A DNA stretch of 64,000 nucleotides. Source: Escherichia coli (lineage in GTDB: Bacteria > Pseudomonadota > Gammaproteobacteria > Enterobacterales > Enterobacteriaceae). The stretch lies in assembly GCF_045037415.1 (NCBI RefSeq), contig NZ_CP173438.1, one strand, 5' to 3'. Position numbers: made by a program. This document shows, one piece after another, positions 39,001-42,000 of the stretch (positions are counted from its first letter, which is position 1; every line of letters starts with the position of its first letter).

Positions 39001-42000
39001 CGCACCCACGGTGTGCTGCGTCCAGCCCAGCGCGTACAGGAAGGTGGTTGTGCGATCCGGTGCGCTGGTGGAGGCCAGCACTTCACACACTTTCAGGAAG
39101 TCGGCTTTTGGCGTACCGCAAATGTTTTCTACTACGTCCGGCGTGTAGCGGGAAACGTGCGCTTTCAGCAGATTCCATACACAGCGCGGATGAGTCAGCG
39201 TGTCATCGCGTTTCGCATAGCCGTTTTCATCGAACTGATAGTTCCAGGACGACTTATCGTATTGACGTTTTTCAGCGTCGTAGCCGCTGAACAGACCGTC
39301 TTCGAAAGCAAAATCATCACGCACCAGCAGGCTGGCGTTGGTGTAATGCTTAACGTATTCGGCGTTGATTTTGTTGTTTTCGATCAGGTAGCGCAAAACG
39401 CCAGACAGGAACGTAATGTCCGTACCGGAACGAATAGGTGCGTAAATATCCGCCACAGAAGCGGTACGCGTAAAACGGGGATCGACAACGATCAAGGTTG
39501 CATCGTTGTTGTTTTTCGCTTCCATCGCCCAGCGGAAACCGACGGGATGCGCTTCAGCAGCGTTACCGCCCATCACCATTACGACGTTAGCGTTTTTGAT
39601 ATCCACCCAGTGGTTGGTCATCGCACCGCGACCAAATGTTGGAGCAAGACTTGCTACCGTTGGTCCGTGTCAGACGCGCGCCTGGTTGTCTACCGCCAGC
39701 ATCCCGAGGGAGCGGGCAAATTTTTGAGTCAGCATCCCGGTTTCGTTGCTGGCACCGGAAGCACACAGCATACCGGTAGAAAGCCAACGGTTTACCGTTA
39801 CGCCCTGCTCGTTCTTTTCAATAAAGTTAGCGTCACGGTCGGCTTTCATCAGCTTCGCAATACGGGAGAATGCTTCTTCCCAGCTAATGCGCTGCCATTT
39901 GTCAGAACCTGGCGCACGATATTCCGGGTAGCGCAGACGGTTTTCGCTGTTGACATAATCCAGCAAACCGGCCCCTTTCGGGCACAGCGCACCACGACTT
40001 ACCGGATGATCCGGGTCACCTTCAATGTGATAAATCGCTTCTCTGGCGTTTTTCGCGCCATCACCCAGGCTATACATCAATAGCCCGCAACCTACGGAAC
40101 AGTATGTGCAGGTGTTACGGATCTCTTTCGCGCGTAATAATTTGTAGTTTCGCGCCTGAGCCAGTGCTTGCTTCGGGGCAAAGCCCAATGCTGCTACTGT
40201 TGTTCCCGCCATACCGCCCGCGCAGATTTTAAAAAATTGTCTGCGACTGACGTCCATTGCTTTCCTCTTTTTTCAGGGGTATTACTGCGCGAGGAAACTA
40301 ACAGTAAAATTCTGAATCTTTTTGCGCGAAATCAAAAAGAACACGTGTTTGCCACAAAATAATCCGCCTGCGCAAATTGACCTACCTCAATAGCGGTAGA
40401 AAAACGCACCACTGCCTGACAGGCCAGTTAAAAAAATGCTATAAAATTCAGCTTAATTTTTAACGGCAAGAGAGACAAAACAGCGAGCATGACACGTCAA
40501 AAAGCAACGCTCATAGGGCTAATAGCGATCGTCCTGTGGAGCACGATGGTAGGATTGATTCGCGGTGTCAGTGAGGGACTCGGCCCGGTCGGCGGCGCAG
40601 CTGCTATCTATTCATTAAGCGGGCTGCTGTTAATCTTCACGGTTGGATTTCCGCGTATTCGGCAGATCCCGAAAGGCTATTTACTCGCCGGGAGTCTGTT
40701 ATTCGTCAGCTATGAAATCTGTCTGGCGCTTTCCTTAGGGTATGCGGCGACCCGTCATCAGGCGATTGAAGTGGGGATGGTGAACTATCTATGGCCCAGC
40801 CTGACAATTCTCTTTGCCATTCTGTTTAATGGTCAGAAAACCAACTGGCTGATTGTACCAGGATTATTATTAGCCCTGGTCGGCGTCTGCTGGGTGTTAG
40901 GCGGTGACAATGGGTTACATTATGATGAAATTATCAATAATATCACCACCAGCCCATTGAGTTATTTCCTGGCGTTCATTGGGGCGTTTATCTGGGCAGT
41001 CTACTGCACAGTAACGAATAAATACGCACGCGGATTTAACGGAATTACCGTTTTTGTCCTGCTAACGGGAGCAAGTCTGTGGGTTTACTATTTTCTTACG
41101 CCACAACCAGAAATGGTATTTAGCACGCCCGTCATGATTAAACTCATCTCTGCGGCATTTACCTTAGGATTTGCTTATGCTGCATGGAATGTCGGTATAT
41201 TACATGGCAACGTCACCATAATGGCGGTAGGTTCGTATTTTACGCCCGTCCTTTCCTCAGCGCTTGCAGCCGTGCTGCTCAGCGCCCCGCTGTCGTTCTC
41301 GTTCTGGCAAGGCGCGCTAATGGTCTGCGGCGGTTCCCTGCTCTGCTGGCTGGCGACACGTCGTGGCTAAAATAATTGTCGGGTCTACGGCCCGGCAGTT
41401 AATCAGATAAATTCTGACAATATTAAAAAATAAATTTCAAATACCAGAAAGTCATTTTAGTTACATTTAGTAACACATATCTGTCTGTTTAATCCACATT
41501 CTGCCCCCGCAGTTACGCTTTCTTATCTATTCTTCTAATCAGCACTTCACCTGATTCATCCTTAATTCTAATAACTGGCTATTGCGCCTTACCTCCTGTT
41601 TTGTCTTTTTTTCATTACCAATGTGTGCATGTGAGGAACAATATGGCACTGCAAAATGAGAAAAATAGTCGTTATCTTTTACGCGACTGGAAACCAGAAA
41701 ATCCGGCCTTCTGGGAAAATAAAGGAAAGCATATTGCACGAAGAAACCTCTGGATATCAGTCAGTTGTCTACTTCTTGCCTTCTGTGTCTGGATGCTATT
41801 TAGCGCAGTTACTGTTAATCTCAATAAAATCGGTTTTAATTTTACTACCGATCAACTCTTTTTATTAACCGCATTACCCTCCATTTCTGGCGCATTATTG
41901 CGTGTCCCCTACTCCTTTATGGTGCCTATATTCGGTGGACGCCGATGGACGGTTTTTAGTACTGCAATCCTGATTATTCCTTGCGTCTGGCTCGGAATTG

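Follow-up and report, generated by a model that had tools for sequence, protein, structure and literature searches.

In Escherichia coli K-12 MG1655, yddG and narU are separated by a 2227-bp spacer that holds yddL (b1472), yddK (b1471, an LRR protein) and yddJ (b1470, a pseudogene). In the 64,000-nucleotide stretch of E. coli DNA analyzed here (from contig NZ_CP173438.1, hereafter the window), the corresponding spacer measures 273 bp and carries none of the three genes, raising the question of whether K-12 gained DNA at this locus or the window lost it. An earlier note on this DNA had described the two genes as about 270 bp apart without yddJ-yddK-yddL, and the comparison bears this out; of the interval that it gave, 41371-41642, the start is correct and the end falls one base short of the true end at 41643. 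It had also stated that three genes lie between narU and yddG in K-12, an LRR protein and a porin-like pseudogene among them. This content matches MG1655, whose spacer is not short, so the statement stands. The two explanations offered for the difference were a K-12-lineage insertion and a deletion in this strain.

The yddG-narU spacer and its alleles in E. coli

Gene content at the locus was read directly from the window, where fdnG (-), yddG (+), narU (+) and then narZ follow one another. Both yddG and narU are intact and flank the spacer in the orientation found in K-12 and O157 (Table 1). From yddG to narU the window is 100% identical to SK1144 and to O25b:H4-ST131 isolates, in which RefSeq annotation names both genes, and the nucleotide identity of its narU to those of K-12 and O157 is 97.6-97.9%. 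On the minus strand, fdnG (37210-40257) appears as two ORFs, 37210-39621 and 39670-40257, which share a frame and are split by an in-frame TGA at 39670-39672. We take this TGA to be the expected selenocysteine codon (Sec196) of the formate dehydrogenase-N alpha subunit, and because it fits such a codon, fdnG is not considered a pseudogene.

Table 1. Features of the yddG-narU region, in window coordinates
Feature	Position	Strand	Basis
yddG, aromatic amino acid exporter, intact	40489-41370	+	ORF; same name in 100%-identical genomes
Left retained spacer, matching the start of the yddG-porin intergenic region of long alleles	41371-41447	+	93-97% identity
Retained GC-rich hairpin immediately after the yddG stop codon	41373-41401	+	Fold: 13-bp stem, -18.2 kcal/mol, z = -4.3
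Predicted deletion junction, AAAGTCATTTTA (12 nt)	41448-41459	+	Lies between two anchors common to other alleles
Inverted repeat GTTAC-ATTTA-GTAAC, upstream edge of the conserved narU upstream region	41460-41474	+	Alignment
Remaining narU upstream region, retained intact	41475-41643	+	Alignment of 18 narU upstream regions
narU, nitrate/nitrite transporter, intact	41644-43031	+	ORF with ATG at 41644; same name in identical genomes

The spacer (41371-41643) is free of porin, LRR and espR1 sequence, and all but 12 of its 273 bp are collinear with the flanks of long alleles. By blastn, the extra DNA of K-12 amounts to 1956 bp and falls between window positions 41454 and 41457, with the window collinear with K-12 on both sides; its GC content is 33.7%, compared to 52% in the flanks. 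The breakpoints were located between a left shared anchor that ends at 41447 (...TTCAAATACCAG) and a right shared anchor that starts at 41460 (GTTACATTTAGTAAC). Only 12 nt separate these anchors in the window, whereas the distance is 1966 bp for K-12, 2541 bp for strain 405, 4153 bp for O157 and 4168 bp for ES5. On the left, identity between the retained spacer and the 75-77 bp that directly follow yddG in K-12, O157, ES5 and strain 405 is 93-97%, and on the right, the remaining narU upstream region is 94-96% identical to K-12, O157 and strain 405.

The hairpin that follows the yddG stop codon has no U tract and was not called in the terminator consensus scan of the spacer, which returned zero calls. 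Hairpins with a CCGGG...CCCGG-type stem are found at the same post-yddG position in one Citrobacter locus (L009), in Salmonella and in Enterobacter. A promoter consensus scan of the spacer gave a single promoter-like site, on the minus strand, which is as many as expected by chance, and an Rfam scan of 40300-42000 (E-value of at most 1) found no relevant family, its sole match being a chance miRNA hit outside the spacer.

The distribution of the alleles was counted in 5426 complete E. coli genomes. A 120-bp probe spanning the window junction, scored as present when at least 80% of it was covered in one place, was found in 1118 of them, including UTI89, NRG 857C and many ST131 genomes, and its identity was 99.2-100% among the matches listed. 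UTI89, NRG 857C and ST131 are presumably all members of phylogroup B2. The 1956-bp K-12 segment is present in 3131 of the 5426 genomes (at least 80% covered), with MG1655 derivatives, ECOR29 and NCTC9080 as examples. A 1536-bp segment specific to O-island 62 gave a match of any extent in 1119 genomes and a match of at least 80% in 1100, O157:H7, O55:H7 and ST648 among them. Together, these three alleles cover nearly all 5426 genomes. IAI39, which has been reported as an island carrier (PMC3079680), matched only the narU-side half of the junction probe and lacks the short junction. When the yddG-narU region was used as a query in E. coli genomes, 29 of the 9687 matching places were on plasmid-labelled records.

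Because 1118 complete genomes have the same junction, the short form is not an assembly artefact. It is a single-junction, lineage-wide allele and not a strain oddity, so that of the suggested deletion in this strain, the deletion holds in substance and the restriction to one strain does not. An insertion in the K-12 lineage is not supported, since about 79% of complete E. coli genomes are filled at this position, yddL, yddK and yddJ are what is left of a larger, decayed porin/LRR cluster, and a yddG-adjacent porin is also conserved in Citrobacter, Salmonella, Enterobacter and Lelliottia. The short spacer marks a B2/ST131-type allele, and its junction could be used as a simple lineage marker.

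The long allele and the K-12 remnants

The variability of this interval has been described previously. O-island 62 of EDL933 (z2239-z2242) sits between yddG and narU, an equivalent is present in EAEC 042, and yddL, yddK and yddJ are the K-12 counterpart of this mosaic, low-GC locus, which was regarded as recently acquired (Okeke et al. 2011, PMC3079680). The window shares its chromosomal interval with the island of O157 EDL933 and EAEC 042 and represents the empty allele, with none of the island content. As a variant of an already described variable locus, the short spacer is an ordinary one.

Going from yddG to narU, O157:H7 has a full porin of 366 aa, an LRR protein of 169 aa, an LRR fragment and espR1 (419 aa); RefSeq annotation names the porin "OmpC" and describes espR1 as an LRR protein and T3SS effector. 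The full porin is also present in the variant alleles of strains ES5 and 405. The K-12 form is collinear with the O157 form minus two internal segments of 1536 bp and 641 bp. Consistent with this, yddL corresponds to the first 96 residues of the porin, YddK residues 93-318 match EspR1 residues 67-292 (89%), the YddK N terminus derives from the upstream LRR fragment of the long allele, and YddJ matches EspR1 residues 307-417 (92%). Judged from these matches, yddL, yddK and yddJ are remnants of the long allele and not K-12 additions, which would explain all three as the wreckage of O-island 62 genes.

Okeke et al. pointed out the similarity of yddL and yddJ to the ends of z2239 and z2242, and they interpreted the K-12 state as an island "disrupted by insertion of yddK" (PMC3079680). 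Our reading of yddK differs from theirs, in that we see a deletion chimera where an insertion was proposed. The gene (K-12, L001, 6759-7715) aligns to two separate parts of the long allele (O157, L002, 3540-3827 and 4468-5149) across the 641-bp deletion, with a 12-bp overlap. This alignment indicates that yddK consists of parts of two LRR genes of the island, fused by the 641-bp internal deletion, and is not an inserted gene.

The island has a GC content of 33-36%, compared to ~50% in its flanks, and its LRR part, at 32% GC, appears clearly foreign in composition. In most other E. coli, decay of its genes is already under way, with pseudogenes present in K-12, O157 and strain 405. Further alleles carry IS1 or IS5 insertions, as in H7 (NZ_CP017220.1) and H31 (NZ_CP084897.2). 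The yddG-narU interval is still decaying by several routes.

Ancestral gene order and the direction of change

The interval was compared with outgroups by a YddG-anchored scan of species-representative genomes, in which neighboring genes were located by tblastn and Pfam; no locus with E. albertii or E. fergusonii in its title came out of the scan, and these two outgroups are not part of the comparison. In Citrobacter, S. enterica arizonae and diarizonae, Enterobacter and Lelliottia, yddG is followed on its own strand by a porin gene at a distance of 450-680 bp. At 14 loci the series is complete and reads yddG - porin - (GFA) - MFS pump (minus strand) - TetR regulator - narU. Twelve of these are labelled Citrobacter or Raoultella and include GFA, the Raoultella-labelled ones being Citrobacter-like by identity, and the other two are from Enterobacter (E. 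quasihormaechei and E. hormaechei) and are without GFA. The order in Salmonella is yddG-porin-smvA-smvR. The MFS pump and TetR regulator, identified here by Pfam family only, are presumably smvA and smvR as known from Salmonella, and we take the Salmonella porin at this site to be OmpD from the S. Typhimurium map. In the literature, there are papers that co-mention smvA, yddG and ompD.

In a neighbor-joining tree, the yddG-linked porin of E. coli groups with the yddG-linked porins of the outgroups and with K-12 NmpC, and lies apart from OmpC, OmpF, PhoE and OmpN. It sits on a long branch, with 71-75% identity to the outgroup porins and a GC content of 44% compared to their 49-52%. The score of the O157 porin (L002, 1681-2781) against the NCBIfam OmpC subfamily is barely above the cutoff (495.8 versus 484 bits). 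Tree and synteny place this porin with the yddG-linked porins of the OmpD/NmpC type, and its RefSeq name is probably misleading. The Salmonella, Citrobacter and Enterobacter yddG-ompD-smvA-smvR neighborhood has the yddG and narU flank in common with E. coli, whose long allele retains a porin from that clade, likewise positioned and oriented. What sets the examined E. coli alleles apart from that neighborhood is that smvA and smvR are missing from the interval, and the window differs further in being without the porin. The published account of O-island 62 leaves this porin-smvAR synteny of the outgroups aside (PMC3079680).

Because the E. coli porin groups with the outgroup yddG-linked porins, we infer that the filled interval is ancestral and that the empty one is derived. 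That the short spacer arose by deletion of some parental allele is very likely, and more specifically, it is probably the scar of a ~4.1-kb, lineage-wide deletion from an LRR-bearing long allele at the O-island 62 site. Under this history, the ancestral enterobacterial order would have been yddG - OmpD-type porin - (GFA) - smvA - smvR - narU. In E. coli, smvAR would have given way to low-GC LRR genes, including the T3SS effector gene espR1, to produce the long allele. Because its LRR part has a GC content of 32% and its porin lies on a long branch, the long allele may itself have been imported by transfer. K-12-type strains would then have lost 1536 bp and 641 bp inside the long allele, leaving yddL, yddK and yddJ, and the ancestor of B2 would have lost the whole block, ~4.1 kb relative to the O157 allele, and with it an OmpD-type porin gene and LRR effector-like genes.

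Divergent Escherichia provide a counterpoint, since the empty interval is not unique to the B2 lineage. At two divergent loci labelled E. coli (L007 and L008), yddG adjoins narU across spacers of 258 and 285 bp. Their yddG genes share 86-89% nucleotide identity with that of the window, and in yddG and narU the identity is 86-90%. At the left junction, their last yddG codons are replaced (RHR*/RQR*), the hairpin is missing, and the spacers carry 70-100 bp unrelated to the left spacer of the window; a blastn-short comparison of the spacer pieces with all fetched loci found no homology except for the narU palindrome. The C terminus of the window YddG (RRG*) is the same as in Salmonella (RRG*), is near that of Citrobacter (RRA*), and is unlike those of L005, L007 and L008 (RQR*/RHR*). 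Because their left junction differs from that of the window, the emptying at L007 and L008 is read as a putative independent loss. In Escherichia sp. MOD1-EC7003 (L005, 10001-20876), the yddG end is altered as in L008 (RQR*) and is followed by REP-like sequence and unrelated ORFs. No narU or narZ was present within 10 kb of yddG at L005, which suggests a larger rearrangement in that lineage.

These loci bear on the opposite direction of change, in which the short spacer would be ancestral and the common ancestor of the non-B2 lineages would have gained the porin-LRR block at a later point, an extension beyond K-12 of the insertion offered in the earlier note. We find this unlikely, although the low GC content of the island (33-36% against ~50% in the flanks), the long branch of the E. 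coli porin, and the adjacency of yddG and narU at L007 and L008 would all suit it, and recent acquisition is also the view of Okeke et al. (PMC3079680). Such an insertion, however, must have put an OmpD-type porin beside yddG in the very position and orientation seen in Citrobacter, Salmonella and Enterobacter. Neither target duplications nor terminal repeats were found around the island, and annotation of the O157 allele shows no IS or integrase gene, leaving no insertion signature. In addition, the different junction at L007 and L008, with the yddG end and hairpin lost and 70-100 bp of unrelated sequence, points to a separate event, and the long allele is found in several phylogroups (O157/O55, ST648 and IAI39-type genomes). 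Should B2 have been the first lineage to branch off within E. coli, the tree by itself would make a single insertion as parsimonious as a single deletion; in that case, the outgroup synteny and the absence of an insertion signature carry the argument for deletion.

A deletion could also have started from the older yddG-ompD-smvA-smvR-narU order, so that the B2 lineage never had the LRR and espR1 genes. This arrangement is documented in the outgroups, and if the narU element has to be kept, endpoints are forced to within tens of base pairs of the palindrome, making coinciding right ends less surprising. We nevertheless give this route little weight. At its right breakpoint, the window agrees to within ~3 bp with the right-hand limit of the LRR block in K-12, O157, 405 and ES5, and the left spacer is collinear with the long alleles. 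Two independent events with near-identical endpoints would be needed, whereas a start from the long allele accounts for both ends in a single event. No smvAR was seen at this site in the E. coli alleles examined for the K-12 and O-island 62 segments.

The window diverges from K-12, O157 and strain 405 by 1.4-4% within the coding flanks and by 3-7% within the short pieces of spacer, and no recombination-tract signal was found in the flanks when the window was compared with K-12, O157, 405 and ES5, as there was no jump in divergence. Recombination is common in E. coli and empty alleles exist in divergent Escherichia, but with flanks this close to K-12, O157 and 405, only 86-90% identity to L007 and L008 in yddG and narU, left junctions that differ from theirs, and no donor with an identical junction and closer flanks among the loci fetched, it is highly improbable that homologous recombination brought in the short allele from a different Escherichia lineage already without the block.

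The probable deletion junction and the narU upstream region

Eight of the 12 junction nucleotides match the continuation of the left flank, TAATTCACCTTA (manual count), and because of the four mismatches between the junction and the left flank, the exact crossover is ambiguous. TTA is present at both candidate breakpoints, ...CACCTTA/TATC and ...GCTTGTTA/GTTAC (slashes mark the breakpoints), and the adjacent 9 nt have 4 mismatches to the left flank. This TTA is a possible 3-bp microhomology and is compatible with microhomology-mediated illegitimate recombination. The likely mechanism would be illegitimate recombination between two AT-rich intergenic regions, probably at the TTA.

Other mechanisms were considered and rejected. 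No terminal direct or inverted repeats were found at the O157 island and its borders, where only short internal LRR-type repeats occur; annotation of the O157 allele lists only porin and LRR proteins, with no IS or integrase gene, and no tRNA is annotated in the interval in K-12 or O157. Insertion or excision of an island by an integrase was rejected on the lack of att-like direct repeats, an integrase gene and a tRNA target, and site-specific excision on the lack of repeats at the O157 island ends. A deletion mediated by an IS element does not fit either, as a junction of 12 nt leaves no room for an IS end; IS1 and IS5, present at the locus in other strains, are absent from the window junction.

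The deletion would have spared the hairpin 3' of yddG and ended at the edge of the conserved narU upstream region. Because both are kept, yddG and narU should remain normally expressed. In this respect, the locus resembles the cadA "black hole" deletions of E. coli and Shigella, which are likewise clean losses of a block, fixed in a pathogenic lineage, with the flanking genes intact. It differs from them in that there is no sign of adaptive loss here, and most other E. coli show the lost genes already in decay.

When 18 narU upstream regions were aligned, similarity across genera was seen to begin at the inverted repeat and to run on through a conserved box, TTTCTTATCTATTCTT, at ~41519-41534. 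The inverted repeat is conserved as TTACAnTTnGTAACA ~180 bp upstream of narU in Escherichia, Citrobacter, Enterobacter, Raoultella sp. and Pseudenterobacter. The edge of this repeat is where the window deletion, the LRR block on its right side and the L007/L008 junction all stop, as does every rearrangement of the interval seen here. Most simply, there would be selection against rearrangements that remove the narU inverted repeat, and it is conceivable that the repeat is a breakpoint hotspot. More tentatively, the interval may be a site of recurrent replacement and erosion, where ompD-smvAR was swapped for T3SS-type LRR genes and the site was then emptied at least two times independently (in B2 and in divergent Escherichia), with all events stopping at GTTACATTTAGTAAC, which would be an uncharacterised protected regulatory site of narU-narZYWV or a breakpoint hotspot. 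By eye, neither a NarL 7-2-7 site nor an FNR or NsrR site fits the palindrome, and this conserved element upstream of narU is a candidate regulatory site.
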